Shown: piece after piece, positions 4,759 through 36,547 of the stretch | Numbering within the stretch: the first letter of the stretch is position 1 | How the letters are laid out: every line of letters begins with the position of its first letter | Assembly (NCBI GenBank): GCA_035559535.1 | Contig: DATMBG010000037.1 | Coordinates: 132,475 to 196,474, forward strand | Length of the DNA: 64,000 bases | Source of the DNA: Candidatus Limnocylindrales bacterium | GTDB taxonomy: Bacteria > Moduliflexota > Moduliflexia > Moduliflexales > JAUQPW01 | Direction of reading: 5' to 3' | Translations under genes and position numbers: made by a program | The notes under the pieces: generated by a model | What the model saw: only the letters and a program-made list of their open reading frames with translations | What the model was told of the DNA's origin: nothing | Databases searched by the model: none

Positions 4759-4835
4759 GGCGGTGTAGCTCAGTTGGTTAGAGCACGCGGCTCATATCCG
4801 CGGCGTCCGGGGTTCGAATCCCTGCACCGCCACCA
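4759..4835 (+). tRNA. tRNA with anticodon CAT, either an elongator tRNA-Met or tRNA-Ile2 (the lysidine substrate of TilS)
   Basis: A 77-nt cloverleaf GGCGGTG/CACCGCC acceptor stem, D-loop AGTTGGTTAGAGC, anticodon loop CT-CAT-AT, T-arm GGTTCGAATCC and an encoded CCA end. G1-C72 pairing argues against an initiator tRNA. Confidence 0.85.
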
Positions 4836-8407: not shown

Positions 8408-8534
8408 TTCGGTACTGAATAAAGAATACTGAAGGATGGGCGAGGATACCCCCGCTCCCAGGAGGGTAAGGAGGCTTACGCTTATTCAGGACTCTTTATT
8501 CAGTACCTCATACGTTGGTAGGAGGGCATGAAAA

Positions 8535-9068
8535 ATGGTTAAAGAAATAAAATTTCCACGGCGCGGAAAACTTGTCGTTGGAATTATGTCCTCCAATATA
8601 AACCTCATTGAAGATACAGAACAAAAATTAATCAAAAAATTCGGTAAAACAGATTTTGAAAGCTCTCTAATTCCCTTCAATCACACCGATTATTACACCG
8701 AAGAGATGGGAGAAGGATTACAAAAAAAATTTGTGAGTTTTTCAGAACTTATAGCCGTGGAAGATCTCCCGTATATTAAGATATTTACCAACGACCTGGA
8801 AAAACGAACTATGAAAGACGGTAAAAGACAGGTTAATATTGACCCAGGCTATCTGACTCACTCCCAATTGGTTCTGGGAACTACTAAAGCCTACGCCCAC
8901 CGAGTTTACCTCAAAGAAGGTATCTATGCAGATCTTACCTATATTTGTAAGAGAAAGAAACTTCAACCCCTGGATTGGACTTATCCTGATTTTAGAGACC
9001 CTAACGTTATCCTCTTTTTCCAGAAAGTACGGGAGCGATACTTAAAACAAATACGCGTAAGTCGATAA
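8535..9068 (+). CDS. Conserved hypothetical protein (possibly DUF4416-like)
   Basis: A 177-aa basic ORF with an ATG preceded by ggaggg. The family assignment is from memory only and is uncertain. Confidence 0.45.
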   Translation: MVKEIKFPRRGKLVVGIMSSNINLIEDTEQKLIKKFGKTDFESSLIPFNHTDYYTEEMGEGLQKKFVSFSELIAVEDLPYIKIFTNDLEKRTMKDGKRQVNIDPGYLTHSQLVLGTTKAYAHRVYLKEGIYADLTYICKRKKLQPLDWTYPDFRDPNVILFFQKVRERYLKQIRVSR

Positions 9069-9142: not shown

Positions 9143-9276
9143 AGTGTGGGAGTGTGGGGGTATGGAGGGTATGGGAATGTGGGAGTATGGGAGTAGGGGG
9201 GCGTAGGAGAGTATAATCCAATATTTCTTATCTCTACACTTCCACATTCCCATACCCTCCATACCCCCACACTCCC
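9143..9276. repeat. Hairpin-forming tandem octamer repeat element (TRTGGGAG units, then their reverse complement), copy 1
   Basis: The left arm (9143-9213) is about nine imperfect TRTGGGAG units. The right arm (9236-9276) is the reverse complement. The same architecture recurs at 21817-21994, 24909-25030 and 34367-34444. Confidence 0.8.
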
Positions 9277-9283
9277 CTTTTCT

Positions 9284-17300: not shown

Positions 17301-18551
17301 CTAAATAACTGGTCCCTGTTTATTATTGGATTGAGCCTGCTGCAGGAACTGTATGAGCAACTTACTTACCTCCTCCGGCTTCTCTTGCTGCACCCAGTGC
17401 CCAGCTCCTTCCACCAGGTGAACCCCCAGCATTTGCCTGCAGGCACTCTCCTTCATTTTCTCTAGATGGCCGGGTCTCTGATAGACCCCCCAGTCACTGG
17501 CCCCTGCAATGAAACTTGCGGGTACCTCAATGGCTCGACCGGAGAATATCTCGAGCTCGGCTGCGTACTTGGGGTCCGTTAGGCAACGATACCACTGCAG
17601 ACCCCCCTGGAACCCAGTCCTGGCGAACTCTGAGCTATACACCCGCAACTCTTCTTCGGTCAGCCATTTGCAGGCTGCGATCTCAGAGTCAGATGGCATC
17701 TCCGGGGCTACGGTCTCTGCCATTCCCTTGTCCAGATCCATGATATAGTAAGGGGGGAGTTTAGCCAGCTCGGTCGCTGTCCAGGATTTGAGCGGGAAAG
17801 GTTTATTTTGCTTCCAGTCCGCACTCTTGACGTGGTAGTAGGCCCGAAGGAAGTTATGAACCCCCTGGGGGCAGTGAAGCATGTTATCGTTGGCCTCACG
17901 GGTAGAGTAGTACCATTGATAATGCTTGCGCGGTCGGGGTAGCGCTGCCAGTTCTTCGTGGATGTCAGGACCGGATGAGACATTGCTTTGTGGGGACTCG
18001 TTAGCCGTGTTGAAGGGTAGCAATGGTGGACCTGCAAAGGGCGCACTCATCAGCACCACAGAACGAAACACGTCCGGCCGTATCAAGGCACACCAGGCCG
18101 CGACAGGGGAGCCAAAATCGTGCCCTACGACGGCTGCCACCGAGCGGTAACCAAGCGCGAAGACGAGCCCCAAAGTGTCCCTGACCAGATTGAGAAAACG
18201 GAAAGAACCGACATCGCCGTCATAATTGCCATCCCAACCTGTAGTGGGTCCATAGCCTCGTTGATCAGGAGCGACTACGTGGAACCCGGCCTGAGCGAGC
18301 GGCAGCATCACCTTTCTCCAGCTGTAGGCAAGCTCTGGGAAGCCATGGAGAAGTAAGACACAGGGATGATCTTTGACCTCGAAGCCGGCTTCCAGCAGGT
18401 GCATAGTGAGACCATTGATGTCGTTCACGAAGCGGGAGCGTATTCCGGCGGGAAGGGTGGTCTCGCCATAAGCCACATCCTTGTTCTTCCTCTCGGTTGA
18501 TTCTTCAACATCGTTCATCGTTCGACCCTGAATAGTTAAATGCATAAGCAT
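17301..18551 (-). CDS. Alpha/beta hydrolase, epoxide hydrolase-like
   Basis: Core motifs VLLLHGFPELAYSWRKV, the nucleophile elbow GHDFGS and a C-terminal EGAGHWVQQEKPEEV. The true start may be at the internal MNDVEEST. Confidence 0.7.
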   Translation of the reverse strand: MLMHLTIQGRTMNDVEESTERKNKDVAYGETTLPAGIRSRFVNDINGLTMHLLEAGFEVKDHPCVLLLHGFPELAYSWRKVMLPLAQAGFHVVAPDQRGYGPTTGWDGNYDGDVGSFRFLNLVRDTLGLVFALGYRSVAAVVGHDFGSPVAAWCALIRPDVFRSVVLMSAPFAGPPLLPFNTANESPQSNVSSGPDIHEELAALPRPRKHYQWYYSTREANDNMLHCPQGVHNFLRAYYHVKSADWKQNKPFPLKSWTATELAKLPPYYIMDLDKGMAETVAPEMPSDSEIAACKWLTEEELRVYSSEFARTGFQGGLQWYRCLTDPKYAAELEIFSGRAIEVPASFIAGASDWGVYQRPGHLEKMKESACRQMLGVHLVEGAGHWVQQEKPEEVSKLLIQFLQQAQSNNKQGPVI

Positions 18552-18688
18552 TTGTTGCCATCATGGCATGGGCAAGGACGGTGAAGACTCCTTGCATGCG
18601 TAAACGGCGTGTGAGAACTCTGCTCTCAGATAAGATAATAAGATTATCTAGGGTTTTATGTAGGGCTTCTCCTCTGTTAAGTGCCACT

Positions 18689-19054
18689 CTAGTCTCGTTT
18701 GTGTCTTCCAAGGTGCTCTGATGCTTTCTGAATGGTGTAGCTATTTTCTTTGATTTTTATCGAAGATAGGTCTCCAGCCAGTTTGTTGGTGTGGATAAAC
18801 AGGAAGAATAGTTTACAAAGCCTTCCCGCATAGGTAAGCTTTGAAGGGTTCCTTTCTTTGCCCTTTGATATCCCTGCTGCCAGATACTCTAACCCATCGA
18901 AGATTGTGCTCCGCATACTGCGGATACAGGTTTTATCATCCAGCTTACCGGGCTCAATGGCAATTAAGTGCTGGTAGTTCATACGTATGAAGGTAATCCG
19001 CAGGTTGCTGGATGTCAAGAACGGAGCAGGAATTGCGGGTTGGGAGGTATCCAA
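18689..19054 (-). pseudogene. Short ORF(s) of unknown origin inside a 1-kb gene-poor gap; possible remnant of a degraded gene
   Basis: Only 60-120-codon ORFs in two frames (18505-18711 and 18689-19054), with no recognisable domain and no RBS. Confidence 0.2.
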
Positions 19055-19265
19055 AAAATTGTGTAAACTAAACCCGAAATCAACTATTATAATTTATTTA
19101 AGGTTATTGTCTGAAAAGAACCGATAAAAATTCATCTTTACCCTATCATGATTTTATCCAAAGAATGGTGGAGGAAATCTCTGAGAAGTCTTCACAGGGA
19201 AAGAAATCTGCTTTGAGCTATTTAGAGATAAACGTATCCGTATCCATTTAGTAGGTGGAAAAAGA

Positions 19266-19349
19266 AACACTCCCTGGCCCCCCTCCAGGGGGGACTGATG
19301 TAGGGTTGCTGCCGCTGAAGTCCCCCCTGGAGGGGGGCCAGGGAGTGTT
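19266..19349. repeat. 31-bp perfect inverted repeat (GC-rich) forming a long hairpin with a 22-nt loop
   Basis: AACACTCCCTGGCCCCCCTCCAGGGGGGACT at 19266-19296 and its exact reverse complement at 19319-19349. Confidence 0.85.
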
Positions 19350-19582
19350 CAGATAGAAAAAGTAACACCTGCTAGATGGTTACAGTTACGAGATAAACTT
19401 TTTTTCTTGACCCTTTTTCCTTAATCTGTTAAACTTTTACAAAAATCTGTTCAATTTAAATTAAATAGGTTTATGGAACATTTAGATGCTATATTTAATA
19501 GAAGGTATATGTTACCTGTTTATATCAGGATAATTTTCCTGATAACTCCAGTTTGCTACCCTCAAAGAGTGGGAGGAAAGGT

Positions 19583-20752
19583 ATGTCATCGGATCTCTTA
19601 AACGAGGCAAAATTACCTGCAATTGTTTTACTGACCCTCTTATTTACCTTGATGGTTATCGGCGTCATTGTTTATTTTGCTGTTGGCGCTCATCGGCCCG
19701 GATTTGCCATCGCCATGCTGGTTATAATAGCTTTTCTGGCCATAGCAGTAACCATTCTTTATCTCTGGAAGGGTGTGATTACCGTTGAAGAAAAGCGGGC
19801 CATGGTTGTGGAGCGATTGGGGCAATTCCATGCGGTTTATGGTGCCGGAGTTCATATTTTACTTCCTTTTATTGATCGGCCCCGGAAGCTCCAGGTCAGA
19901 AGTGTAAATGGGGAGTTTATACAGGTTGAAGATATCGATTTAAGGGAGAGGACTGTAGATCTGCCTGCACAGGTCGTTATTACCAAGGATAACTGGCAGG
20001 TCGAAGTCGATAGTGTAGCTCAGTATCAGATTGTGGATCCCAAACAAGCCGTTTATGGAACAGCCAACGTGGTTCTGGCTATGGAAGAGTTGATCAAAAC
20101 TTCTCTAAGGGATGTTATCGGAGGGATCACTTTGCAGGATTTGCTGGGTGGACGAGAGAAGATTAATGCGGAATTAAAACTACGGATCAGCAAAACCAGT
20201 GCAGATTGGGGAGTTCAAGTTCGTGAAGTGGGGTTGCAAAGGATTAATCCACCTGCCGCCTACATTGAGTCCATGAGCAGGAAGCAGGCGGCTATTGCAG
20301 AAGCGGAGGGTAAGAAACAAGCAGCCATTGCAGAAGCGGAGGGTAAGAAACAGGCAGCTATTCTGGAAGCCGAAGGGGAACGGGCAAAGATCAATGCCTA
20401 TGAAAGTACCGATGTTCTTTTAAGAGTCAAATACCTGGAAGCCTTGGGGAGGATCGCAAACGGTAACGCAACTAAGGTATTTATTCCTTTCCCCAACGAT
20501 CCGAGTCAGGCAAATCTTTTCAGTAATATTATGAATGTAATGGCCGGCGTGGGAGAAGCCTTTTCTACCAAAGATTTTAATACCCCGGCTGGTGGACAGG
20601 GTTCCAAACCGTCTCCTGAAAGTACTACCAAACCTTCGGTCCATAAACCCGAACCTGCCAAATCAGATCCCCATAAACTTGGGCAACGACCCCTAGTCAA
20701 AAGACCTGTACCCCCCTCATCTCCACAATCCCCTCCAAAGGCAGAATCCTAA
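19583..20752 (+). CDS. SPFH/band 7 (stomatin/flotillin-like) membrane protein with C-terminal repeats
   Basis: ATG at 19583 preceded by gggaggaaagg. One N-terminal TM helix, then an SPFH domain (VEEKRAMVVERLGQFHAVYGAGVHILLPFID). Three tandem KQAAIAEAEGK heptad-like repeats, then a Pro/Ser-rich tail. Confidence 0.75.
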   Translation: MSSDLLNEAKLPAIVLLTLLFTLMVIGVIVYFAVGAHRPGFAIAMLVIIAFLAIAVTILYLWKGVITVEEKRAMVVERLGQFHAVYGAGVHILLPFIDRPRKLQVRSVNGEFIQVEDIDLRERTVDLPAQVVITKDNWQVEVDSVAQYQIVDPKQAVYGTANVVLAMEELIKTSLRDVIGGITLQDLLGGREKINAELKLRISKTSADWGVQVREVGLQRINPPAAYIESMSRKQAAIAEAEGKKQAAIAEAEGKKQAAILEAEGERAKINAYESTDVLLRVKYLEALGRIANGNATKVFIPFPNDPSQANLFSNIMNVMAGVGEAFSTKDFNTPAGGQGSKPSPESTTKPSVHKPEPAKSDPHKLGQRPLVKRPVPPSSPQSPPKAES

Positions 20753-20819
20753 CCCCCCTCGAGAGGATGTGGAAGCAGAATAGGAACCCCTATTTTCATC
20801 CTACATCCCAGGTTCCAGC

Positions 20820-21815
20820 GTGAGAAAGGTCTCCATTCCTCTGAATAAGATTTCATCCCAGGATATTAACCTGGCTAAAAATCCTAAGGCCATGGAAGAG
20901 GTGACCGCTATTCTAAAATTGTCCCAGGAAGAGCGAAACGCCAGGTTATCAGAGATTTCTCAGAGAATTACCCAGGGAACTGCTACCCTCTACGAAGAAA
21001 AAGTCCTGGCAAAGCTACTTTCTCCAGGTCAGGCAGAATGGATCTACTTGCTTAATAAAAACCTCTCTAAGATTGAGGCCCAAGGGACCGGTCTGGAAGA
21101 AGAAAAGCCTTCCTCATCAGAGGATGAACTAAAGCAGGAGGAAAGGACTCCTACTTCTTCCTCTACCCAAACTGAGGAACCTCCGGATCGAGTTTCCAGA
21201 ACAATCTTTTCAAACCGAAGTTTAGAAAAGGAACAATCAGACCTCAAAATCCTGCCTTCTCCATCTGAAATAGGATCTTACATGAAAGGTTTTTTAACTG
21301 GAGTTATCGGGGCCGGTCTCTTAATTCTGGGAATATGGAAAACTTTTAATTCCCCTGAAAGCTCAAAGTTTGAGGTAACCTTCTCTTCTCGATCTTCCTC
21401 GACCCCTTCTCTCCCTGCAGATACCCTTCAGGTTCTTCAGACCCAATTAGAAAAAGGACAGCAGGAGATCCGAATGGGTAATTTTAACCGGGGAGAGTCT
21501 GAACTGAAGGAAATTATGGTAAAATATCCGGAGACTTCCCAGGCTGAGGAAGCTTATCTGACACTGGCAGAAGCCTATCGATATCGGAGCCAAAAGCCGG
21601 ATCAAGCCCTCCAGCTTTATCAAGCTTTTTTAGAAAAATATCCCCATAGTTCCCGAACCGGTCTGGTTCTCTTAAAAATGGGATTCTGTTATGAAGACAT
21701 GGAGGATCGGGGGAATGCAGTAGCCATGTACCAATCTGTTATCCAACGCAACGGTGAAAAAAGTCGACTAGGGCAGCTAGCGGCTGAGAGATTGAAAACT
21801 CTAACAAAAGAGTAA
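20820..21815 (+). CDS. Hypothetical protein with a C-terminal TPR/YbgF(CpoB)-like domain
   Basis: The C-terminal ~110 aa (AEEAYLTLAEAYRYRSQKPDQALQLYQAFLEKYPHSSRTGLVLLKMGFCYEDM) looks like tetratricopeptide repeats similar to the YbgF C-terminus. The middle is low-complexity Ser/Thr/Glu. The GTG start is uncertain. Confidence 0.45.
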   Translation: MRKVSIPLNKISSQDINLAKNPKAMEEVTAILKLSQEERNARLSEISQRITQGTATLYEEKVLAKLLSPGQAEWIYLLNKNLSKIEAQGTGLEEEKPSSSEDELKQEERTPTSSSTQTEEPPDRVSRTIFSNRSLEKEQSDLKILPSPSEIGSYMKGFLTGVIGAGLLILGIWKTFNSPESSKFEVTFSSRSSSTPSLPADTLQVLQTQLEKGQQEIRMGNFNRGESELKEIMVKYPETSQAEEAYLTLAEAYRYRSQKPDQALQLYQAFLEKYPHSSRTGLVLLKMGFCYEDMEDRGNAVAMYQSVIQRNGEKSRLGQLAAERLKTLTKE

Positions 21816-21816
21816 G

Positions 21817-21994
21817 AGTGTGGGCGTGTGAAGGTATGAGAGTATGGGAGTGTGGAAGTAGGGAAGTATGGGAGTATGGAAGTGTGGGGGTGTGGGAGTG
21901 TGGACGTGGGGAGTAAATTCTCCCCTACTCCCCTACTCTCATACTCCTATACTCCCATACTTCCACACTCTCATAACTTCCACACTCCCATACT
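21817..21994. repeat. Hairpin-forming tandem octamer repeat element, copy 2 (the longest)
   Basis: About 12 TRTGGGAG-like units (21817-21913), the loop AAATTC, then the reverse-complement CTCCCAYA units (21920-21994). Confidence 0.8.
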
Positions 21995-22004
21995 TTATAA
22001 AGAA

Positions 22005-22811
22005 ATGCTATCACCTGAGATCCGAGATACCATTGTGCGGAGTAGTAAAATTTATGACCTTGGCCAGCCTATATATATGGGAATGCCTGTTTATCCTACC
22101 CATCCACCCTATATTTTTACCATGGTCCGACGACACGGGGATGTCTTTCGAGAAAATGGATTCAGCGGAGCTAACGAGCTCCTGGTTATGTGCGGACATA
22201 CGGGAACACATCTCGATGGATTAGGGCATATTTCCCAGAATTGTAAGCTCTACGGAGGAGTGGATGCGATAGAAACGCAAACTGGCGGAAAGGGATTAAA
22301 ATCCCATGGAATGGAAACGGTCGCCCCTATTCTTTGTCCGGGAGTTTTGTTAGATGTTCCGGCGTATCAAAATATAGAAGTCTTACCCCCTACCTATGAA
22401 ATTTCATCGGCAGAGTTAGAAGCTGTAGCAAAGTTTGAAGGGGTCTCTATTAATCCGGGCGATGCCGTTTTCATTCGTACGGGTTGGATCAGGCACTGGA
22501 ATACCCCCCAGACTTATATCGGACAGGATACCGGCCTTCCGGGTCCCAATAACGATGCGGCGGAATGGCTGGCCAGTAAGAAAATTCGCGTGACCGGAAG
22601 CGATACCATTACCTATGAATGTGTGAAGCCCAACACCAATCGGATGCCGGTTCATATGACTTTACTGGTCAAAAATGGTATTCATATTATTGAAATGATT
22701 AACCTTGAAGAATTATCTCGAGATCGTATTTATTCCTTTCTTACAATTATATCCCCACTTAAGATTGTCGGAGCAACCGGTTCCCCGATTCGACCTCTGG
22801 CTATCGTTTAA
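22005..22811 (+). CDS. Cyclase family protein (kynurenine formamidase/arylformamidase-like, PF04199)
   Basis: The metal-binding motif MCGHTGTHLDGLGH is present. I prefer the internal ATG at 22005, because the ORF-track start at 21852 lies inside the repeat element. Confidence 0.75.
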   Translation: MLSPEIRDTIVRSSKIYDLGQPIYMGMPVYPTHPPYIFTMVRRHGDVFRENGFSGANELLVMCGHTGTHLDGLGHISQNCKLYGGVDAIETQTGGKGLKSHGMETVAPILCPGVLLDVPAYQNIEVLPPTYEISSAELEAVAKFEGVSINPGDAVFIRTGWIRHWNTPQTYIGQDTGLPGPNNDAAEWLASKKIRVTGSDTITYECVKPNTNRMPVHMTLLVKNGIHIIEMINLEELSRDRIYSFLTIISPLKIVGATGSPIRPLAIV

Positions 22812-22827
22812 AATTAAAGGAACTTTC

Positions 22828-24108
22828 GTGTCGAAGAAGGCAAGTAATTTAGAAATTTTTAGCTGGTGCATGTATGATTTTGCTAATTCCTCCTTTACGA
22901 CCGTCATCGTCACCGCTTTTTACGTCCTTTACTTTAAAGAGGTCGTACTTAAGGGTTACTCTCCCGAAGAAGGGGATTTTTTCTGGGGGTTGAACATTTC
23001 CTTATCTATGTTATTTGTAGCCCTGTCTTCACCGATATTAGGTGCCATAGCCGATTATTCCGGGGCCAAGAAAAAATTTCTCCGATTTTATTCCCTTCAG
23101 TGTATCCTTTTTACCGCACTTCTGTTCTTTGTGAAGGAGGGAGATCTTTTACCTGGAATGCTATTTTTCATTCTGGCCAATATCGGATTTGAAGGCGGGA
23201 TTGTTTTTTATAATGCTTTTTTGCCCGAGATTGCAACCTCTGAAAATATAGGACGTATTTCAGGTTATGGGTGGGCTCTGGGATATTTGGGCGGTCTGGC
23301 TTCCTTAGTGATGGTCCTCCCTCTCGTCAAGGGAGGATTCACCCCGGAAAATCTCTTGAACTGTCGACTGAGTTTCGTGGTCATCGCCCTCTGTTTTTTA
23401 GTTTTTTCACTTCCTACCTTTATTTTTTTAAAAGAGCGGGCAATGCCTAGAACTCCCCCGGCCGGGCAAAGCTATATTCAGGCCGGTTTTTCAACACTGG
23501 CTGGTACTTTTCGGGAGATAAAACGATATCGAGAACTGCTCAAGTTTCTTCTGGCCTTTTTTCTTTTTAATGATGCCATTGCCACAACCATCGCCTTTAG
23601 TGCCGCCTATGCCCAGGATACCTTGCATTTTACCGTGAGCGAGAATATTACTTTAATTATCGTGATTAATATAACGGCAGCCATCGGTGCCTTCCTGTTC
23701 GGTTTTGTGGTCGACCGGATCGGAGCCAAAAAAACTATCAGTATTACCCTGTTGATCTGGATTATGGTTGTCATCAGCGCTTATTTTAGTGAGACTAAGA
23801 CGAGTTTCTGGATTATTGCTAATATAGCCGGAACAGCCATCGGTGCTTCCCAATCTGCCAGTCGTAGTTTGATCGGTAGCTTTTCACCGAAAGAAAGAAG
23901 TGCGGAGTTCTTCGGATTCGAGGCAGTCTGTGGGAGGTTTTCGGCTATTTTTGGACCTCTGGTCTTTGGGACCGTATCTTCCTGGACAGGTAATCAACGG
24001 TATGCCGTACTTTCGATAGGTTTTTTCTTTACCCTGGGTTTAATCTTACTCCAGCGGGTTAATGAAAAGGAAGGAATCGAGGCAGCAAGAATCGGAAATG
24101 CCGGTTAA
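22828..24108 (+). CDS. MFS transporter, Atg22-like (UMF1) family
   Basis: About 12 predicted TM helices; the N-terminal IFSWCMYDFANSSFTTVIVTAFY motif is typical of the Atg22/UMF1 clan. A GTG start at 22828, just after the cyclase stop, is preferred over the overlapping upstream ATG. Confidence 0.6.
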   Translation: MSKKASNLEIFSWCMYDFANSSFTTVIVTAFYVLYFKEVVLKGYSPEEGDFFWGLNISLSMLFVALSSPILGAIADYSGAKKKFLRFYSLQCILFTALLFFVKEGDLLPGMLFFILANIGFEGGIVFYNAFLPEIATSENIGRISGYGWALGYLGGLASLVMVLPLVKGGFTPENLLNCRLSFVVIALCFLVFSLPTFIFLKERAMPRTPPAGQSYIQAGFSTLAGTFREIKRYRELLKFLLAFFLFNDAIATTIAFSAAYAQDTLHFTVSENITLIIVINITAAIGAFLFGFVVDRIGAKKTISITLLIWIMVVISAYFSETKTSFWIIANIAGTAIGASQSASRSLIGSFSPKERSAEFFGFEAVCGRFSAIFGPLVFGTVSSWTGNQRYAVLSIGFFFTLGLILLQRVNEKEGIEAARIGNAG

Positions 24109-24218
24109 TGAAGAAGGAAGAATAAAGGAATGCTTAGGATTCATGGTTTTAGGAAGCGATTGACGATTGGCGATTGGGAGGTTACCCATCGTCGCTCGCT
24201 GTTCGCTGAAGATAACTC

Positions 24219-24908
24219 TTGTTAAAGGTTTTAGGAATTGATACCTCCACCATGACCGGAAGTGTCGGGCTTCTTAATGATCGGGAATTAATGGGGGAAT
24301 ATACAATAGGTAATCTGGCTAATCATTCCGAACGGTTGATGACGATGATAGACCTTTTGCTGAAGGAAGTAAACTTAAAGCCGGAAGAAATAGATGGAAT
24401 AGCGGTTGCCCTGGGACCCGGATCTTTTACAGGACTACGCATTGGGGTAACTACAGCAAAGGCCCTGGCTTACAGTCTGAAGAAACCGATTGTCGGGATT
24501 CCTACTCTAGATGCCCTGGCCCAGCATTTTACTTTAACAGACAGGTTGATCTGTCCCATTCTGGATGCCAGAAAACAGGAAGTATACTCGGCTTTTTATC
24601 GGTCTGATGGTCATAAAGCTCAGAGAATATCGGATTATCAGGTGAGTTCAATTGAAAAAGTTCTGGAGAAAATTCAAGAGCCCGTGGTATTTTTAGGAAA
24701 TGGCCTGATTCTTTATCAATCCCATATTGCAAAGGCTTTGGGTGAAAAGGCTCTTTTTGCAGACCCGGCCCATTCTTCCCCAAGGGGTGGCTTAATCGCC
24801 TGGTTAGGTCTTCAACGTCTGACCCAACAAGATCAGGATGATCCTTTCTCTCTGGTCCCTCTGTATGTGCGGAGGTCGGACGCAGAGATCTTTTGGGAGA
24901 AACGGTAG
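24219..24908 (+). CDS. tsaB: tRNA threonylcarbamoyladenosine biosynthesis protein TsaB (YeaZ)
   Basis: The N-terminus ILGIDTSTMTGSVGLL matches the inactive Kae1/YeaZ-like fold. The length is 229 aa and the start is TTG. Confidence 0.75.
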   Translation: MLKVLGIDTSTMTGSVGLLNDRELMGEYTIGNLANHSERLMTMIDLLLKEVNLKPEEIDGIAVALGPGSFTGLRIGVTTAKALAYSLKKPIVGIPTLDALAQHFTLTDRLICPILDARKQEVYSAFYRSDGHKAQRISDYQVSSIEKVLEKIQEPVVFLGNGLILYQSHIAKALGEKALFADPAHSSPRGGLIAWLGLQRLTQQDQDDPFSLVPLYVRRSDAEIFWEKR

Positions 24909-25030
24909 AGAGAGTATAGGAATGTGGGGGTATGGGAGTATAGGAGTGTGGAAGTATGGGAGTGTGGGAGTATGGAGGTGAATTCTCCCTTACTTCCATA
25001 CTTCCATACCCCCACACTCCCATACCATCA
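24909..25030. repeat. Hairpin-forming tandem octamer repeat element, copy 3
   Basis: Eight TRTGGGAG-like units, the loop GAATTC, then reverse-complement units. It exactly fills the tsaB-hemB intergenic space. Confidence 0.8.
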
Positions 25031-25034
25031 ACTT

Positions 25035-26003
25035 ATGAGTTTTCCTATTTATCGTCCTCGACGACTTAGAAAAAACGAGAGTTTTCGTCGTATGATACGA
25101 GAAACTCGTATTTCTGTGGATGATCTGGTTTATCCTTTGTTTGTGGTTCCCGGAAGTCATATTAAGAGTGAAATACCCTCCATGCCGGGAAATTATCATT
25201 TTTCTGTGGATCGGTTGGTGGAAGAGGTGAAAGAGGTTTATGATTTGCGGATTCCCGCGGTTTTGCTCTTTGGAATTCCTGAAAGTAAGGATAGTGTGGG
25301 TTCTGGAGCCTATGATGAAAACGGGATTATCCAGAGAGCTGTACGAGCTATCAAAGAGAGAGTACCCAACATGATGGTTATTACCGATATTTGTCTGTGC
25401 GAGTACACCGATCATGGCCATTGTGGAGTAGTTCTAGATGGAGAGATTCAAAATGATGAAACGTTAAAGCTTCTTCAAAAAACAGCCTTATCCCACGTGA
25501 AAGCCGGTGCGGATATGGTAGCACCTTCCGACATGATGGATGGAAGGGTTAAGGCGATTCGAGAAATTCTCGATAATACCGGGTATTCCCATATTCCTAT
25601 CATGGCTTATTCGGCTAAATATGCCTCAAGCTTTTATGGACCTTTTCGCGATGCCGCCCACTCCGCTCCACAATTTGGAGATCGCCGGTCTTATCAAATG
25701 GATCCCGGGAACAGCCAGGAAGCAATTCGGGAAACCCTGCTGGATATTGAAGAAGGTGCCGATATCGTCATGGTCAAACCGGCTCTTCCTTATTTAGATG
25801 TGATATATCGAGTTAAAACCGAGCTGGGTATGCCCACAGCGGCCTATAATGTAAGCGGTGAATACTGTATGGTTAAAGCGGCTGCGTCCCGGGGATGGAT
25901 TGATGGGGAGCGGGCTATGATGGAGATGTTACTGGGGATTAAACGAGCGGGGGCAGATATTATCCTGACTTACTTTGCCAAGGAGGTGGCCGCACGATTA
26001 TAA
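25035..26003 (+). CDS. hemB: Porphobilinogen synthase (delta-aminolevulinic acid dehydratase)
   Basis: The [25 protein letters not shown]-terminus, the active-site region with the cysteine-rich zinc site [14 protein letters not shown], and the Schiff-base lysine region ([11 protein letters not shown]) are all present. Confidence 0.9.
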
Positions 26004-26017
26004 AACTCCTTGACAAA

Positions 26018-26047
26018 AAGATCTCCCTTTCTGTATGTTAAAACTAC
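26018..26047 (+). promoter_or_regulatory. Candidate sigma-70 promoter (TTGACA-18-TATGTT) upstream of lepB, followed by the palindrome GAATGAG-TGTACG-CTCATTC (26066-26085)
   Basis: A consensus -35 hexamer and a plausible -10. The downstream 7-bp-arm palindrome could be an operator. Confidence 0.3.
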
Positions 26048-26140
26048 TGTGGTTATGAGGTAGAATGAGTGTACGCTCATTCAGAATTTTAGGTTTCTGG
26101 AGATATTAACCGTAGCTAATTCTGATTCTTTTCAACAAGA

Positions 26141-26740
26141 ATGGACAGAGCTATTCAAAGGATTGTACTGGTTATGCAACAATATATAAAAATCTTAGAA
26201 CACTGGAAAGCTGACATGACTAAAGGTTACAAGGGCGTTATTCTGGAGTGGATTAAAACCGGAGTTATTGCTATTATTCTTTCCTTCATTATCAAGGCTA
26301 CCGTTGTAGAAGCCTACCTGGTACCCAGTAGTTCCATGGTACCGACCATCCAAATTGGAGATCGTATTCTGGGAAATAAGTTTATTTATTGGTTTACAGA
26401 CCCCAAACCCGGAGACATCGTTGTTTTTCGTCCTCCTCCAGAGGCCCACACCAATGTTCCACGATATGTTAAAAGAGTGGTAGCCGTAGAAGGAGATCTT
26501 GTGGAAATAAAAAATGGCATGTTATATGTTAACGGAAAACCTCGAAAGGAAGATTATATCAAGGAACCTCCAGAATACACCTTTGGACCTAAGCGGGTTC
26601 CAAAGGGCCACATATTCGTCTTAGGAGACAATCGGAATAACAGCCATGACGGTCATGTTTGGGAATTCCTTCCTAAAGAAAATCTACTGGCCAAGGTATT
26701 TTTCCGATTCTGGCCACCGAGCCGGATAGGAGTGCTATAA
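26141..26740 (+). CDS. lepB: Signal peptidase I
   Basis: S26 motifs SSSMVPTIQIGDRIL (Ser nucleophile), the KRVVAVEGD Lys box and GDNRNNSHDG are present. Confidence 0.8.
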   Translation: MDRAIQRIVLVMQQYIKILEHWKADMTKGYKGVILEWIKTGVIAIILSFIIKATVVEAYLVPSSSMVPTIQIGDRILGNKFIYWFTDPKPGDIVVFRPPPEAHTNVPRYVKRVVAVEGDLVEIKNGMLYVNGKPRKEDYIKEPPEYTFGPKRVPKGHIFVLGDNRNNSHDGHVWEFLPKENLLAKVFFRFWPPSRIGVL

Positions 26741-27028
26741 ATAAGGGCATAGGGGCGATCCCAGAGATCGCCCTCACCAGATCTCACTATACTCTTCCAC
26801 CGAATTTAAGGTGCAGGACTGACCTGTCTTAAATTTCTCTGGCAAGGCGAAACCTCCAGATAGGTATTCCCAGACTCTATCTGGGAATAAAGTTAGGAAC
26901 AGAAATAGTAGAGAACCTTACAAAAGTAAAGTCATTAAGAGAATTTATTCCTCACCCGAACTTACCTGAGTTTCCGATCTGCTTACCTTCATCTTGACAT
27001 CCCCTTTTCCCTTAGAGTATATAAAATT

Positions 27029-28711
27029 ATGCAATCTTTTTTGATTCAAAGGTTTAAGGGTTTTTTTCCACAAACCTTTACGTTTCTCAAAAATTTGCAG
27101 GCCCATAATACCCGAGAATGGTTTGCAGCCCACAGGGAAGAGTTTTATCGCTACCTGGATCAACCCCTTCGAGCTCTTCTTAGGGATTTGGGTCCCTTTA
27201 TCTCCCAAACCTTTCCCGCCTTCAAATGGGAAACCACTCCCAAAACGGGGAAGTGCCTTTCCCGGATTCATATCCAGGGTAAGTCAGGAGTAAACTTATA
27301 CTATACCCATTACTGGGGAGCATTTTATCGTCAAAGTCAAACCAAACAGCGTGATGCCCAGCTTTTTATCAGCCTTCATCCTGAAAAGGTTCGGATAGGA
27401 TTTCATCTGGGATCTGAAGCTAGGCTGGTATGGATGCGGTTTCAAAAAAATATTAAAAAGAATCCCCATTTTTTTCAATCCCTGCTGAGGGAATTAGTTT
27501 TAAAGGAATCCTATATCTTCGAAACCCTTAAGAAATCCAAGGAGGTTCCCCATCCACTTCCTGAAGTACACGATTTAGAAGCCTTAAAAACCTGGGCTCA
27601 GGCCCGAGAAATGACAATAGCCCGGGAGTTAGATCTGCAAGAACCCCGCCTCTATCAACCTGAGCTGGTTCAGGTAGTAGAGGAGATTTTTAAAGATCTT
27701 TATCCCTTTTATGTGTTTGTTACAACTCCGGACCCCATTTCTAAGCTAAATGGCCGAATACGAGTGGCTGACCGACCTGCTTTATCTTTGACCAAAGCCC
27801 TCCGAGGTCTGGTTAAAGAAGAACCCACGCCCTATCCTTCCACGACGTCTTTACCGGCTTATACCTTTCAGCAACTTCTGGAAGAAACTTACCTGGAAGA
27901 ATCCTTCCTTAGAAGTATAGAAAACTTATTAAGCTCTGGGAAAAAGCAGGCGATTTTTACAGGGCCTCCTGGAACCGGAAAGACCTATGTGGCTCAAAAG
28001 TTTGCCAGATATCTACAAGGATCTGAGGGTCGGGTGCAACTTATTCAATTTCACCCTACTTATGGGTATGAAGAATTTATGGAAGGAATCCGACCTCAAC
28101 TGGTTCAAACCCGGGAGGGTTTCCACGAGGTAACTTATGAAGTAGAAGCGGGTGTTTTTAAAGCGTTTTGCGAGGAAGCTCGGGGGAGAAAGGGAAATTA
28201 CGTTTTTATTATCGATGAAATCAATCGTGGAAATCTTTCTCGAGTTTTTGGAGAATTACTCTACCTGCTGGAATATCGGGATCAAGAGATCATTCTCCCC
28301 TACTCACGCCAGCGCTTCTCCATTCCAGAGAATGTTTATATCTTGGGGACTATGAACACAGCCGACCGTTCCATTGCTTTGGTCGACTTTGCATTACGTC
28401 GACGGTTCCATTTTGTTTCCTTCGAAGCCGACCAGGCCGTTTTAAAACGCTGGCTTGAAAAGAATTGTCCTTCCATGATGGAATCGGCATTAGAGATTTT
28501 TACCCTCCTGGATCGAGCCATTGAAGATAAGCACTTCAAGATCGGGTTTAGCTATTTTATGGATCCGGAATTGGATCAGGACAAACTTCGACTTCTCTGG
28601 AACTATACCCTTCGACCTTATCTGGACGAATACTGGTTTAACGATCCCTCGCGGGTTTCTAAACTTGAGGAGAAGGTCAGGAAGATCCTCTCCAAAGAAA
28701 AGAGCTCGTAA
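27029..28711 (+). CDS. DUF2461 (TIGR02453-like) domain fused to a McrB-family AAA+ GTPase domain
   Basis: The N-terminal ~230 aa begin FKGFFPQTFTFLKNLQAHNTREWFAAHREEF, the DUF2461 signature. The C-terminal half has Walker A GPPGTGKT, the McrB-specific motifs QFHPTYGYEEFMEGIRP and MNTADRSIALVDFALRRRF, and Walker B FIIDEINRGN. There is a TTGACA-17-GTATAT promoter ending about 5 nt before the ATG, which suggests a leaderless mRNA. Confidence 0.8.
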   Translation: MQSFLIQRFKGFFPQTFTFLKNLQAHNTREWFAAHREEFYRYLDQPLRALLRDLGPFISQTFPAFKWETTPKTGKCLSRIHIQGKSGVNLYYTHYWGAFYRQSQTKQRDAQLFISLHPEKVRIGFHLGSEARLVWMRFQKNIKKNPHFFQSLLRELVLKESYIFETLKKSKEVPHPLPEVHDLEALKTWAQAREMTIARELDLQEPRLYQPELVQVVEEIFKDLYPFYVFVTTPDPISKLNGRIRVADRPALSLTKALRGLVKEEPTPYPSTTSLPAYTFQQLLEETYLEESFLRSIENLLSSGKKQAIFTGPPGTGKTYVAQKFARYLQGSEGRVQLIQFHPTYGYEEFMEGIRPQLVQTREGFHEVTYEVEAGVFKAFCEEARGRKGNYVFIIDEINRGNLSRVFGELLYLLEYRDQEIILPYSRQRFSIPENVYILGTMNTADRSIALVDFALRRRFHFVSFEADQAVLKRWLEKNCPSMMESALEIFTLLDRAIEDKHFKIGFSYFMDPELDQDKLRLLWNYTLRPYLDEYWFNDPSRVSKLEEKVRKILSKEKSS

Positions 28712-28933
28712 ATTTTTCCTGCCCATTGGGTTCTTGGGGAACGACCTGTTCTGGATCCGATCAAACAGGTCCTCCCTACCGGGGTTCAACCAACCCCAAA
28801 AAAAGCCACGGACCCCTATCCCTGACACATACAAAGTGGAAAAGGGGCCAGGTTTGAGCACCTGGACCCGTATAGAACGGAAGGGTATTATCCATAAAAA
28901 CTTAGAAGCCTCCTTTTAGGGAAAAGGATATAA

Positions 28934-29398
28934 TTACCCTTCTACTTCCACAATCATCTCGATTTCTACGGGTATATTTCGAGGTAAAGAACCCATTCCA
29001 ACAGCCGAACGTGCATGCCTGCCCCGATCTCCAAAGATAGCCACCAGGAGATCTGAACAACCGTTTATGACTTCAGGATGATTGGTAAAAGACGGATCGG
29101 CATTGACCATACCCAACACTTTGACAATCCGTTTAACTTTGTTCAGATCTCCGATTTCGGCTTTAAGGGAAGATAGCAGGTTGATGGCCACCAGCCGTGC
29201 CGCTTCTTTTCCCTGCTCCAAATCTATCTCACGTCCCACCTTACCGATTACCATGCCCCCTTCCGGCTTTCTCGGTCCATGTCCGGCAAGAAAGATCAGA
29301 TTTCCGGTACGTACTGCATGGACATAATTTGCCAGAGGGCGGTCCGGGGTATGAAGGGTTACTCCTAATTCCTTGAGCCGCTGCTCAACATCGACCAT
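28934..29398 (-). CDS. RidA/YjgF/TdcF family reactive-intermediate deaminase
   Basis: A 154-aa protein with the conserved FLAGHGPRKPEGGMV and ARLVAINLL region and a C-terminal PVEIE. The length and motifs fit the chorismate-mutase-like RidA fold. Confidence 0.8.
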   Translation of the reverse strand: MVDVEQRLKELGVTLHTPDRPLANYVHAVRTGNLIFLAGHGPRKPEGGMVIGKVGREIDLEQGKEAARLVAINLLSSLKAEIGDLNKVKRIVKVLGMVNADPSFTNHPEVINGCSDLLVAIFGDRGRHARSAVGMGSLPRNIPVEIEMIVEVEG

Positions 29399-29546
29399 AC
29401 GTTTTTATCCTTTCAGGGTTCTGGCTTTGCCTGGTTTTTGTTTAAGACCAGACAAAATCAACAGTCTTATCCTTTTAGTCTCCTGAGTGAATCTTATCAA
29501 CTCTTCCAAAAAGACAAACGAGGACGTTTGTCCTACTCTTACTTGT

Positions 29547-31184
29547 TTAGGGAAATAAAGAAAACGTAATTTCTTTGGCAGTAAGGAATTCCAGTAAGAC
29601 GGGAATGCCCTCTTTTGTTTTCTGGATACCTCGTTTGATGGCCGGGATGATTTCATCGGGGGTAGAAATCCGTTCTCCGTATCCACCGAAGGCTTTGGCC
29701 ATATCGGCATAATTCCCGGATATATCGGTACTGCGATATTTCTCTGTAGAGATCGGCATAACCGGCAGCTCCATGGCCATGGAGAAGTTGTTGAATAGAA
29801 TAGAAAGGATAGGTATGCGTTCCCGGACTGCGGTTTCAAAATCCATACCTGTAAAACCAATGGCAGCATCTCCCCAGACGTTGATGCACAACTTGTCCGG
29901 TTTGGCCAGCTTGGCACCCATGATCAGCCCGAGTCCGTAGCCCAGTTGGGTGGTCTTACCCCAACCCAGATAAGAAAGAGGGGTAACCGATTCCCAGAAA
30001 GGTGAAAGCTGATCTCGGGGACTTCCTGCATCATGGGTAATGATGGTATTGGCCACATCGACTGTGTGTAACAGATCCCAGATTACTCGATAAGGAGAAA
30101 GGGGAACATCCTTAGAAGTTAGCTTGGGCATCCATTTGGCCAGCCATTCCCCCTTGATGGTTTTGATTTCTTGAATTACCTGCTCTGCACGACCTCGGGG
30201 TTTACCTCCTAACTGGTCTCGAATTTCGGTTACTAAGGCCTCGAGGGTCAATCGGGCATCTCCGATCAGAGCATATTCTACTGCCACATCTTTGTTAATA
30301 TCCGCCGGATCCAGCGTAGCCTGGATAATGGTTTTGCCTTTGGGTATCTTCACCCCAAAGTTAGTGGTACTGAAACTACATCCAATACCAAAAATCACAT
30401 CGGCCTTCTGGAGGAAGTCATAAACCGTTTGGGGCATGGACTTACCGCCAGAACCTAAGGACAGAGGATGATTTTCCGGAAAAGCACTTTTACCTCCCAG
30501 GCTGGTAGTAACCGGCGCTTCTAGTAGTTCCGCTAATTCACGCAAAGCCTGCCAGCCTTTTGCATAATGAACCCCCTGTCCTGCATAGATAACCGGTCGC
30601 TGGGCATTGAGTAAAACCCGGGCCACCCTTTGGACTTCGAGTACGTCGGGTGCATAGCGCAATTTAGGTGTGGGACGATAATTTAAAGGTTCCGGGACTT
30701 CCTCTGCAAAAAGATCACTGGGAATTTCTACCAATGCCGGACGCGGTCGACCGTTTTTCACCTGGGTAAAAGCACGGCGTAAGGCATCCGGTAAGGCTTG
30801 AGGTAGAATAACCTGTTCACAAGACTTGGTCACATGGCGATAATTAATAAAAGAATTGAAATTAGGAGGGATATTGGTTATGGTACGGGGATACCCCATG
30901 GGCAGTACCACGATAGGTACCGAATCCCCGTAGGCCTGGGCTACCCCCCCAAAAGCGTTTTCCGACCCGGGCCCGCTTTGCATGCAGAACACCCCGATTT
31001 TCTCACCTGACGTCACCCGACTGAGGGCATCGGCCATATGAAGGCCTACACGCTCCTGACGGACGATGATGGGACGAATCCCTACCTTTGCGGCACCCTC
31101 GATAATATGGTTGACCGGATAAGCAAACAGGTATTCTACCCCCTCTATCTTTAAAATTTGACCGATGGCATCAGCAACTTTCAT
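29547..31184 (-). CDS. Thiamine pyrophosphate-dependent enzyme (acetolactate synthase / sulfoacetaldehyde acetyltransferase-like)
   Basis: An N-terminal pyrimidine-binding domain, a central domain and a C-terminal TPP-binding region (GDAAIGFTGMDFETAV). The length is 545 aa. The specific substrate cannot be determined from sequence alone. Confidence 0.7.
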   Translation of the reverse strand: MKVADAIGQILKIEGVEYLFAYPVNHIIEGAAKVGIRPIIVRQERVGLHMADALSRVTSGEKIGVFCMQSGPGSENAFGGVAQAYGDSVPIVVLPMGYPRTITNIPPNFNSFINYRHVTKSCEQVILPQALPDALRRAFTQVKNGRPRPALVEIPSDLFAEEVPEPLNYRPTPKLRYAPDVLEVQRVARVLLNAQRPVIYAGQGVHYAKGWQALRELAELLEAPVTTSLGGKSAFPENHPLSLGSGGKSMPQTVYDFLQKADVIFGIGCSFSTTNFGVKIPKGKTIIQATLDPADINKDVAVEYALIGDARLTLEALVTEIRDQLGGKPRGRAEQVIQEIKTIKGEWLAKWMPKLTSKDVPLSPYRVIWDLLHTVDVANTIITHDAGSPRDQLSPFWESVTPLSYLGWGKTTQLGYGLGLIMGAKLAKPDKLCINVWGDAAIGFTGMDFETAVRERIPILSILFNNFSMAMELPVMPISTEKYRSTDISGNYADMAKAFGGYGERISTPDEIIPAIKRGIQKTKEGIPVLLEFLTAKEITFSLFP

Positions 31185-31287
31185 TCTCTTTCTCCTTTCC
31201 GTAATACTTCATTTATAGCCATAAAAGCCTTTCTACACCTGGGGACGACCCGTGGGTCACTTCCCCCCGCGTTATATCCAAAGTACA

Positions 31288-31310
31288 GGCGGAAGGCCTT
31301 CCGCCCCTAC
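31288..31310. repeat. GC-rich REP-like palindrome GGCGGAAGGCCTTCCGCC + CCTAC
   Basis: An 18-nt perfect palindrome. It shares the motif GGCGG(A/G)AGGCCT(T/C)CCGCCCCTAC with the 44-nt palindrome at 37960-38003. Confidence 0.7.
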
Positions 31311-31457
31311 GGTAATGTCATAGCCTTTTCATAGGAATGGGTATTTTTGGGAATAAAAGAGGATCAAGCAAAAAGGTATGTTTCATGGGAGTAATTGTCA
31401 AGGAAAATGGGTTTTTCTACGCTTTAGCTATCTATTCCATGGACCTGAGCCATGCCG

Positions 31458-32798: not shown

Positions 32799-32897
32799 AA
32801 TTTAAAGGGTCAAAAATTGGAAGCCAGAAGAAGGAATCTTGACCGACCTTCGACGTCTGATTTCTAACTTCTAACCCCTGCTGCCTGCGTTTCCTGA

Positions 32898-34351: not shown

Positions 34352-34366
34352 GGCCCAGGAACTACC

Positions 34367-34444
34367 TTGTATGGGAGTGGGAGAGTATGGGGTATAGGAA
34401 GATTTACATCCTTACTCCCCCACTCCCATACTCCCATACCCCCC
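34367..34444. repeat. Hairpin-forming tandem octamer repeat element, copy 4 (short), inside the liv operon between livM and livG
   Basis: TGTATGGGAGTGGGAGAGTATGGGGTATAGGAAG, the loop ATTTACAT, then the reverse complement. Confidence 0.8.
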
Positions 34445-34446
34445 TT

Positions 34447-35424: not shown

Positions 35425-35497
35425 TTTCTCTGTCCTATATCACAGGTAACATTTAATCCAGGTAACCGACTATAGTTTACCTATGACCTTTTATTCT

Positions 35498-36373: not shown

Positions 36374-36465
36374 TAGTATTTGGGACGCGGAGACACGGGG
36401 ATGCAGAAATGCGAGGACAAAGAGATAAGAAAAAAGATGATTACCAATACCTTCATGCCCTTGAA

Positions 36466-36547
36466 TCCCCACGTCTCATATCCCCGTGTCCCTGTGTTTC
36501 CGTGTCCCCATGTCCCCGTGTCTCCGCGTCCCCGTGTCCCCGCGTCT
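36466..36547. repeat. Tandem octamer array (CCGTGTCC / CCCCGTGT units, about 9 copies), single arm
   Basis: CCCACGTCTCATATCCCCGTGTCCCTGTGTTTCCGTGTCCCCATGTCCCCGTGTCTCCGCGTCCCCGTGTCCCCGCGTCTC. The C4-N4 periodicity gives G4-N4 runs on the minus strand. Confidence 0.8.

Follow-up and report, generated by a model that had tools for sequence, protein, structure and literature searches.

Do long hairpins built from 8-nucleotide (nt) tandem repeats serve a purpose between bacterial genes, or are they simply tolerated there? This question is raised by a 64,000 nt stretch of contig DATMBG010000037.1 (positions 132,475 to 196,474 of the forward strand; assembly GCA_035559535.1, Candidatus Limnocylindrales bacterium), which is called the window in the following. 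As read from the sequence, four of its spacers share the same build: TRTGGGAG-like units in series come first, a brief A/T-rich turn follows, and complementary CTCCCAYA units make up the rest. An earlier inspection of the letters by a model (the original prediction) had described these four sites as hairpins of a dispersed family with G-quadruplex (G4) potential, similar to repetitive extragenic palindromic (REP) sequences or MITEs (miniature inverted-repeat transposable elements). Our analysis bears out the octamer arrays, their hairpin potential and their dispersal. The most informative features are two that the prediction lacked: the anchoring of the arrays at stop codons and the strict order in which a G-rich array precedes a C-rich one. 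Tentatively, we read each site as an intercistronic RNA hairpin that would be generated by slippage, would act in a REP-like manner and would link the upstream stop to the downstream start.

Paired Octamer Arrays Fill Five Spacers

The window holds five such sites, all of them intergenic and between co-directional genes. The prediction of four was incomplete, since a fifth site (36380–36552, minus strand), in which the same architecture is built from a different octamer, CACGGGGA, had been overlooked. The arms are listed below; in the text, 1G and 1C stand for the G-rich and the C-rich arm of site 1.

Site 1, G-rich arm: 9143–9209, plus strand; about 8 TRTGGGAG-like units, 74 nt past the stop of the DUF4416 gene (8535–9068)
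Site 1, C-rich arm: 9234–9279, plus strand; about 5 CTCCCAYA units, ending 4 nt short of the ATG of the amine oxidase gene (9284)
Site 2, G-rich arm: 21816–21913, plus strand; about 11 units, from the first base after the TAA of the TPR/YfiO-like gene (20820–21815)
Site 2, C-rich arm: 21917–21994, plus strand; about 9 units, ending 10 nt short of the ATG of the cyclase gene (22005)
Site 3, G-rich arm: 24909–24979, plus strand; about 8 units, from the first base after the TAG of the TsaB-like gene (24219–24908)
Site 3, C-rich arm: 24982–25028, plus strand; about 5 units, ending 6 nt short of the ATG of hemB (25035–26003)
Site 4, whole hairpin: 34367–34446, minus strand; about 4 + 3–4 units between two liv-type ABC transporter genes, beginning right behind the stop at 34447 and ending 15 nt short of the GTG start at 34351
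Site 5, G-rich arm: 36474–36552, minus strand; about 8 CACGGGGA units (coding strand), right behind the stop of the periplasmic binding-protein gene (36553–37806)
Site 5, short complementary arm: 36380–36404, minus strand; CCCCGTGTCTCCGCGTCCC on the coding strand, ending 7 nt short of the ATG of the permease gene (36373)

Sites 4 and 5 occupy two junctions within one liv-type ABC transporter operon. At site 5, the arms are separated by a pyrimidine-rich stretch that pairs weakly with the remainder of the G arm. Among the spacers of the window, arrays are present in 5 of 27 between co-directional genes, in none of the 5 divergent and in none of the 3 convergent spacers.

Both the octamer periodicity, measured against shuffled sequence, and the hairpin potential proved statistically solid. 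Tandem Repeats Finder reported period-8 arrays at 9143–9199, 21834–21903, 21920–21994, 24912–24975, 24985–25025 and 34413–34443 (3.9–9.2 copies), which covers every arm long enough for scoring. An inverted-repeat search paired the arms over 39 nt at site 1 (97%), 59 nt at site 2 (78%), 45 nt at site 3 (82%) and 22 nt at site 4 (91%). At site 1, and only there, even the order of the variant units is mirrored: positions 9238–9276 are the mirror of 9148–9186 at 97%. The pattern TRTGGGAGTRTGG, with up to two mismatches, was matched 45 times versus 4.0 ± 1.9 times in shuffles, and 41 of the 45 matches fall inside the four sites. A profile of 52 units (T50 R52 T44 G47 G48 G39 A40 G47) reads T-R-T-G-G-(G/A)-(A/G)-G; its conserved part is A-G-T-R-T-G, while the G-tract varies between G and A. 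The G strand is nearly free of C (0–2 C per arm), and the arrays are nearly free of stop codons.

Each arm comprises about 3–11 units, which corrects the range of 5–12 given for a run before, and the elements measure 78–178 nt. The arrays had also been said to start within about 20 nt of a flanking start or stop codon. This applies to sites 2–4, where the array starts 0 nt past the stop, and not to site 1 with its distance of 74 nt. Downstream, the arrays end 4–15 nt short of the next start.

Predicted Folding and Translation Signals

The predicted RNA folds of sites 1 to 4 have energies of −97.4 (z −12.0), −116.4 (z −12.5), −67.3 (z −7.1) and −47.4 kcal/mol (z −3.3) in comparison to shuffles, and for site 5 a value of −80.4 kcal/mol (z −6.8) was obtained. 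Of 36 window spacers of at least 35 nt, the five sites show the lowest folding energy per nt (−0.44 to −0.59 versus −0.15 to −0.45 for the other 31, mostly −0.15 to −0.34). The predicted basal helix takes in or abuts the start codon (AUG) at sites 2 and 3, and it lies 2 nt off the AUG at site 1. On the opposite side of the same predicted helix, the upstream stop is found at a distance of 0–7 nt at sites 2–5. No Shine-Dalgarno sequence is present in the last 20 nt before the downstream starts of the sites, in contrast to the gene starting at 8535, which has AGGAGG.

The unit spacing had been taken as a canonical G4 motif. In the form (G3+N1-7)x3 G3+, this motif occurs in three of the eight arms of sites 1 to 4 (1G, 1C and 4C) and is missing from the other five, because many units have GG or GA in place of GGG. 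In addition, sister arrays of units that cannot form a G4 are found in the same positions (see below).

The sites do not have the look of intrinsic (Rho-independent) terminators. Sites 2–5 are absent from the output of a terminator scan over the range 20000–38500; site 1 lies outside this range and is followed by CUUUUCU, by reading of the sequence. Rfam covariance models run over the window returned a tRNA at 4759–4832 as the sole match and no family at the repeat sites.

Orthologous Spacers Keep the Layout and Exchange the Unit

We compared the window with other loci and contigs, which are labelled L001, L122, L127 and so on. Syntenic relatives are L122/L123 (94–95% nt identity), L132 (90% HemB identity) and L125–L127 (87% HemB identity). 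Every orthologous spacer examined holds a tandem-repeat hairpin of varying content, and no empty site was seen.

Expansion and contraction between relatives, which had been suggested as a check, are evident, as unit numbers differ between genomes that are 94–95% identical: this is the case for the window and L122/L123 at sites 2, 3 and 4. In the spacer between the TPR and cyclase genes, about 11+9 octamer units in the window compare to about 5+3 in L122. In L125 the same spacer contains a hairpin of the heptamer GATGAAC, and in L127 the spacer of 49 nt consists wholly of a CAGTGGG heptamer hairpin. Between the TsaB and HemB genes, L122 and L132 carry the same octamer family with other unit counts, L125 carries diverged octamers and L127 three nested repeat hairpins. 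At site 5, two 95%-identical genomes (window and L122) even have different unit families, and the exchanged segment begins with the final codon(s) of the gene upstream and extends through the first codons of the one downstream. All further pairs of 7–10 nt arrays in L125 and L127 are G-rich first and then C-rich. The order of elements in the spacer is the same in every relative: stop, stem, 6–12 nt, start. Since this layout is kept while the unit content changes, the architecture of the spacers is conserved and their sequence is not.

Position and Polarity Rules across Phyla

A scan for exact TRTGGGAGTRTGGGAGTRTGG with one genome per species yielded at least 120 loci. Together with the five sites in 64 kb and with contigs of the same organism that break at the elements, this confirms that the family is dispersed. 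For the survey of distribution and polarity, open reading frames (ORFs) of at least 90 amino acids (aa) were used as gene proxies, and all counts that follow refer to the matches listed in the species-genome scan. These matches, among which the source genome does not appear, belong to Bacteroidota (Puia and several closed soil metagenome-assembled genomes), Armatimonadota, Anaerolineales (Chloroflexota), Planctomycetota, Acidobacteriota, Verrucomicrobiota, Gemmatimonadota, Ignavibacteria, Rhodothermales and Cyanobacteria (Calothrix PCC 7716, Brasilonema, Chamaesiphon). Several genomes have at least 5–13 loci, with up to at least 13 in Bacteroidota. Many matches sit on megabase contigs, so that mis-binning does not explain the spread over phyla. 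In 2.9 million viral contigs the pattern is near absent (3 matches only).

The arrays follow a strong positional rule. Of the 67 arrays that start at most 15 nt past a stop, 66 are G-rich on the coding strand (p 9e-19), and the same is true for 29 of 31 arrays of unrelated 7–9 nt units in this position at the same loci (p 5e-7). Often, the first unit and the stop codon share one register, as in tagTATGGGAG or GTAtgaGAGTATGGGAG. For lone arrays, the 5′ end of the G-strand has a median distance of 7 nt from the gene boundary, the 3′ end one of 83 nt from the next. Close pairs consist of a G arm followed by a C arm in 33 cases and never of the reverse. Upstream of putative starts, the octamer family is C-rich on the coding strand in 23 cases versus 5, while other units are evenly distributed (6 versus 6). 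The flanking genes are co-directional at 151, convergent at 96 and divergent at 19 loci. A mini fold-back at the 3′ end of lone arrays is weakly enriched (16 versus 8 with a stem of at least 5 bp).

The usual form in Bacteroidota is that of a discrete element in which the stop is followed by RAAAG, (TATGGGAG)x4 and TGAAA. Where two genes converge, each has its own copy, and sister arrays of GTGTGGTA, GTGTGAGA, GTATAAGA or TTATGGG take the same positions. Wide pairs have centres that are unique and A/T-rich; they are therefore not MITEs with a conserved core.

Several Bacteroidota loci (among them L003, L010, L053, L093 and L102) were also seen to hold several different 7–8 nt arrays in series within one spacer, such as GTCAACG/GTCATCG, TGTCATC and CTCTAAT, or about 25 TTTACGC units at 3605–3790 of L053. 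Often these serial arrays stand immediately behind the four-unit octamer element.

Proposed Mechanism and Alternatives

How could such spacers arise, and what could they do? In the explanation that we tentatively favour, every site is made up of a pair of convergent arrays of a C-free, purine-rich octamer; the first begins at the upstream stop, and its complement ends a few bases before the next start. Replication slippage or unequal exchange would make the arrays lengthen, shorten and homogenise in place, and whole spacers would turn over fast. Length polymorphism and homogeneity within arrays were observed, and the arrays differ from one another. We infer local slippage or unequal exchange because units are more alike within than between arrays and because signatures of transposition are lacking; judged by the sequences, transposition does not appear to be involved.

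The spacer would be transcribed together with its flanking genes and would fold into a hairpin of 40–70 bp, the base of which would set stop and start side by side. This stem would bury the downstream initiation region, which has no Shine-Dalgarno sequence, and downstream initiation would then need a ribosome that terminates at the upstream stop and opens the basal helix, that is, translational coupling mediated by structure. Like REP sequences and bacterial interspersed mosaic elements (BIMEs), the stem would block 3′ exonucleases and serve as a substrate for RNase III. Protection and cleavage would determine how strongly adjacent cistrons are expressed relative to each other, such as the liv-type binding-protein gene versus the permease genes. 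With the G arm first, the C-rich arm, which lacks G, would never be exposed unpaired in the nascent transcript, and Rho loading would thus be avoided; were a long arm of this kind to emerge first, it would be an ideal loading site for Rho, which may be why the order is enforced.

Several observations weigh against this explanation. The folding models give no robust sign of selection on the RNA, because the advantage of the sense over the antisense fold, which is predicted for all five window sites, fails in L122 (two of four) and in other phyla (four of 14). In the best register, a G arm is no more similar to its own C arm (identity 0.77) than to the arms of other sites (0.74), so that pairing could come about because two arrays share one unit; we consequently rejected co-evolution of the arms. 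Bacteroidota copies are mostly lone four-unit arrays that have no partner arm, so that a hairpin is not what defines the class. At site 1, with 74 nt to the upstream stop, coupling cannot apply, and the Rho argument fails to cover lone arrays at convergent gene ends, which are G-sense as well. That the spacers are transcribed, that the RNA is processed and that translation is coupled is in each case an inference.

The main rival takes the arrays for functionless, slippage-prone satellites that would form and expand from any seed and persist only at places and in orientations that are harmless; the hairpin would result when one spacer receives two arrays of the unit that is spread through the genome. 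We regard this as rather unlikely. It agrees with arm complementarity that is no higher within than between sites, with the inconsistent sense-strand advantage beyond the window and with the rapid turnover of unit number and unit family between close relatives, as well as with arrays that are homogeneous internally and different from each other. Divergent spacers, which contain promoters, are avoided, and no function was assigned to the analogous heptamer arrays by Rehm et al. 2015 (PMC4692102). Yet a passive filter is a poor fit to arrays that start 0–13 nt past the stop while their other end has a median distance of 83 nt from the next gene. It also leaves unexplained why the polarity is 66:1 among the matches listed, even in convergent spacers, why the Bacteroidota form has four units and conserved ends, and how three unit families rebuilt the same stop-stem-start geometry in one orthologous spacer.

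The remaining readings, based on G-quadruplexes, mobile elements or protein binding, are weaker. Just past the stop, the non-template DNA strand or the RNA could adopt a G4, with which the hairpin would compete and which could be a signal for pausing or termination or for protection of the 3′ end. The G3-N5 unit spacing, the canonical four-tract motif in three of eight window arms and the strong preference of Bacteroidota copies for exactly four units point in this direction, and the heptamer analogues share the four-unit preference and form G4 in vitro (Rehm et al., PMC4692102). We nevertheless consider it improbable: five of the eight window arms are devoid of the motif, it is the A-G-T-R-T-G core and not the G-tract that is conserved, arrays of GTGTGGTA, GTGTGAGA, GTATAAGA, GATGAAC and CAGTGGG, which cannot form G4, obey the same rules of position and polarity, and each G arm of the window faces a complementary arm that would out-compete G4 folding. 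Distinctly improbable, in our view, are non-autonomous mobile elements (MITE- or REPIN-like) that favour gene 3′ ends and are copied by an enzyme encoded elsewhere. They would account for the same unit at many sites per genome and in many phyla, for Bacteroidota copies with conserved 5′ (RAAAG) and 3′ (GTGAAA) ends, for the change of family at site 5 between 95%-identical genomes and for the REP/BIME-like position, and the G-then-C order would simply follow from the definition of a single terminal inverted repeat. However, the MITE-like character that had been proposed did not stand: no target-site duplication is present at the five window sites and at 83 junctions in other genomes, where the array abuts or includes the stop codon at the flanks examined, and lengths and loops differ at every site, with no conserved internal sequence. 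Of about 49 window ORFs, 20 were scanned against Pfam, and none of these is a transposase or REP-associated tyrosine transposase (RAYT). The unique centres of wide pairs, the three viral matches and the occupation of all orthologous spacers examined also speak against mobility. Finally, the arrays might bind a protein, either a CsrA-, S1- or Csp-like RNA binder or, as a Chi-like signal, a nuclease of the RecBCD/AddAB type, so that the adjacent gene is protected from degradation from the spacer side. The core at fixed 8 nt spacing would suit this idea, the polarity can be expressed at the DNA level alone (the 5′ end of the G-strand faces the ORF), and RNA-binding proteins were proposed for TAACTGA arrays by MacGregor 2015 (PMC4679880). 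We think it very improbable, since many unrelated units follow the post-stop rule, which is hard to reconcile with a single specific binder.

A more far-reaching idea, to which we give only a small chance, is that the arrays are no passive products of slippage and stem from a dedicated mechanism common to many phyla that writes or maintains purine-rich 7–9 nt arrays precisely at cistron ends, with the G strand running 5′ to 3′ away from the ORF, as a general end-of-cistron signal. Such a signal could, for example, combine factor-independent pausing or termination with protection of mRNA ends in lineages poor in classical terminators, and the window hairpins could be its two-sided form. Templated 3′-end extension on either side of a break, with subsequent joining, would likewise leave G-rich repeats that converge on the two strands.

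Consequences for Assembly and Annotation

The prediction that the elements create spurious ORFs was borne out. As the arrays are nearly stop-free, public models of hemB are mis-started: the NCBI model HWP48132.1, which lies on a 237-kb contig and matches the hemB product of the window identically, has 351 aa with a 29-aa extension into the C arm, and P0004 has 354 aa and overlaps the upstream gene. JGI models comprise 303 aa, and the Pfam ALAD match favours 322 aa. Short-read contigs of the same organism break in or at the elements; L001 starts from window position 9247 inside the C arm of site 1, and L124 starts just past the C arm of site 3. In practice, such arrays thus interrupt short-read assemblies and cause wrong start calls in public annotations.

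Other Observations in the Window

A second, REP-like family coexists with the octamer hairpins, as judged from GC-rich perfect palindromes with a GTAG head (GTAGGGGCGGRAGGCC/...CCCCTAC) at 31283–31310, 37960–38003 and 47869–47915. The pattern of GTAG-headed palindromes was matched 5 times versus 0.9 expected in the window. The copy at 31283–31310 is absent from L122 (94–95% identical) and therefore represents an indel.

Further inverted and tandem repeats were noted. A 31 nt perfect inverted repeat (AACACTCCCTGGCCCCCCTCCAGGGGGGACT ... complement) forms a hairpin at 19266–19349, within a segment of 157 nt (19234–19390) that L122 lacks; only 4 nt separate the end of the short-read contig L001 from the beginning of the hairpin. 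An adjacent segment of 594 nt (18537–19130) is also missing from L122 and carries an ORF (18689–19054, minus strand) with no Pfam match. Between a 598-aa gene and the DUF4416 gene, an inverted repeat at 8411–8507 (GGTACTGAATAAAGAATACTGAA / TTCAGGACTCTTTATTCAGTACC, 23 nt, 91%) has an arm of units of about 7 nt. A 33 nt tandem repeat (2.5 copies, 87% matches) lies at 20281–20362, inside the Band_7-type gene 19553–20752.

A segment of 1,426 nt (31406–32831) with a class-III aminotransferase gene (31458–32798, minus strand) is absent from L122. The 6 nt direct repeat AAGGAA at both junctions suggests a microhomology-mediated deletion or insertion. At 58297–61205 (minus strand), a gene for a LigD 3′-phosphoesterase domain adjoins an 811-aa ORF; with the Pfam scan covering the small gene only, this is probably a ligase locus for non-homologous end joining.

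The G+C content is about 46%, and the best non-self matches of HemB (about 72–74%) are from Nitrospinota, Binatia and Tectomicrobia. Among the window genes is one for a BamD/YfiO-like protein, and syntenic relatives encode BamA-type (POTRA/Omp85) and BamD-type proteins. Because of these BamA- and BamD-type genes in the relatives, the label Candidatus Limnocylindrales (Chloroflexota) looks doubtful.

Comparison with Known Repeat Families

REP sequences and BIMEs are extragenic elements, located at the 3′ ends of genes or in the spacers of co-transcribed ones. Their RNA folds into stable hairpins, and their families are species-specific, with dispersed copies. Their classic positions, malE-malF and hisJ-hisQ, are junctions of a binding-protein gene with a permease gene, and REPs within about 15 nt of a stop influence termination and translation. 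A REP is a single imperfect palindrome of 20–40 nt with a GTAG or CGTC head and is tied to RAYT transposases. Newbury in 1987, Bertels and Rainey in 2011 and Liang in 2015 are said to be sources for these REP/BIME features. The window sites resemble the REP/BIMEs of Enterobacteria and Pseudomonas in their position at gene 3′ ends and between cistrons, and site 5 likewise separates a binding-protein gene from a permease gene. Unlike REPs, their arms are tandem octamers, the elements of 78–178 nt have no GTAG or CGTC head, and no RAYT was found among the 20 ORFs scanned. The suggested REP-like nature therefore holds for the position and probably for the mode of action; membership in the REP family was rejected, as neither the 20–40 nt unit nor the head is present.

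Two other origins were also dismissed. Integron attC sites do not agree, on reading, with syntenic housekeeping genes at the flanks and the lack of a GTTRRRY core, and a cyanobacterial origin of the window was rejected because it contains no HIP1 sites.

Heptamer direct repeats of TAACTGA occur in Beggiatoaceae, Cyanobacteria and Bacteroidetes (MacGregor 2015, PMC4679880). Like the octamers, they are intergenic tandem units a few nt from ORF boundaries in a patchy set of phyla, a distribution that suggests horizontal spread with no known vehicle (PMC4679880). Unlike the window octamers, they mostly stand just upstream of starts on the coding strand, are not G-rich and form an inverted pair only once (PMC4679880). 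The prokaryotic satellites of Subirana and Messeguer 2019 include (AGGGGAGT)2 in Mesorhizobium ciceri and (GATAGRA)n in Chloroflexus (PMC6749651). In the passages of that paper that we searched, they are comparable as genome-specific families of short units, one of them a G-rich octamer of similar sequence, and these passages do not describe a hairpin arrangement, anchoring at stop codons or polarity (PMC6749651).

By their sequence features, the window arrays are an octamer variant, apparently undescribed, of gene-end-anchored short tandem repeats with a period of 7–9 nt, a class that comprises the cyanobacterial short tandemly repeated repetitive (STRR) sequences and the GGGAATC-type repeats of Xanthomonas and Nostoc. 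As in this class, imperfect units of 6–9 nt are arranged head to tail in many dispersed non-coding copies; the flanking ORFs are aligned or convergent and rarely divergent, the coding strand past the stop is G-rich, convergent pairs occur, and the unit number varies while the site is kept. Because the period is 8 and all described members are heptamers, we file the arrays as a new variant and not as members of a described family. No relevant paper came up when the library at hand was searched for the exact octamer in all its rotations or for phrases on octamer repeats. Gene-end arrays of 7 nt units have been known in cyanobacteria since 1990, and the Nostoc heptamer is reportedly the STRR1 of Mazel and colleagues from that year.

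The closest counterparts were described by Rehm et al. 2015 (PMC4692102), who found the heptamers GGGAATC (Xanthomonas) and GGGGA(C/T)T (Nostoc PCC 7120) between aligned and rarely between divergent ORFs, on the coding strand at most 50 bp past the stop or on the non-coding strand just upstream. Each Xanthomonas genome has 70–75 convergent inverted pairs, four units are preferred and the length is polymorphic; the heptamers form G4 in vitro and are transcribed, with no function assigned (PMC4692102). The octamers agree with them in the dispersed head-to-tail short units, the inverted convergent pairs, the preference for four units and the variation of unit number between relatives. They differ in their period of 8, in unit sequence, in many units devoid of a G3 tract and in an octamer that is common to many phyla. 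In addition, every copy in the window is a long two-armed hairpin that fills the spacer, with up to 11+9 units.

An apparently undescribed octamer family, widespread among phyla, thus joins the heptamer arrays, to which no function has been assigned. Beyond these, our data extend a strong strand rule to unrelated units (66:1 for the octamer family and 29:2 for others, among the matches listed). They also reveal an extreme form in which two arrays fill the spacer of an operon, with a predicted stem of 40–70 bp tying the upstream stop to the downstream start, and orthologous spacers that keep this architecture while they swap the repeat unit. Together, these points make it testable whether such repeats are a general signal of cistron boundaries or tolerated junk.

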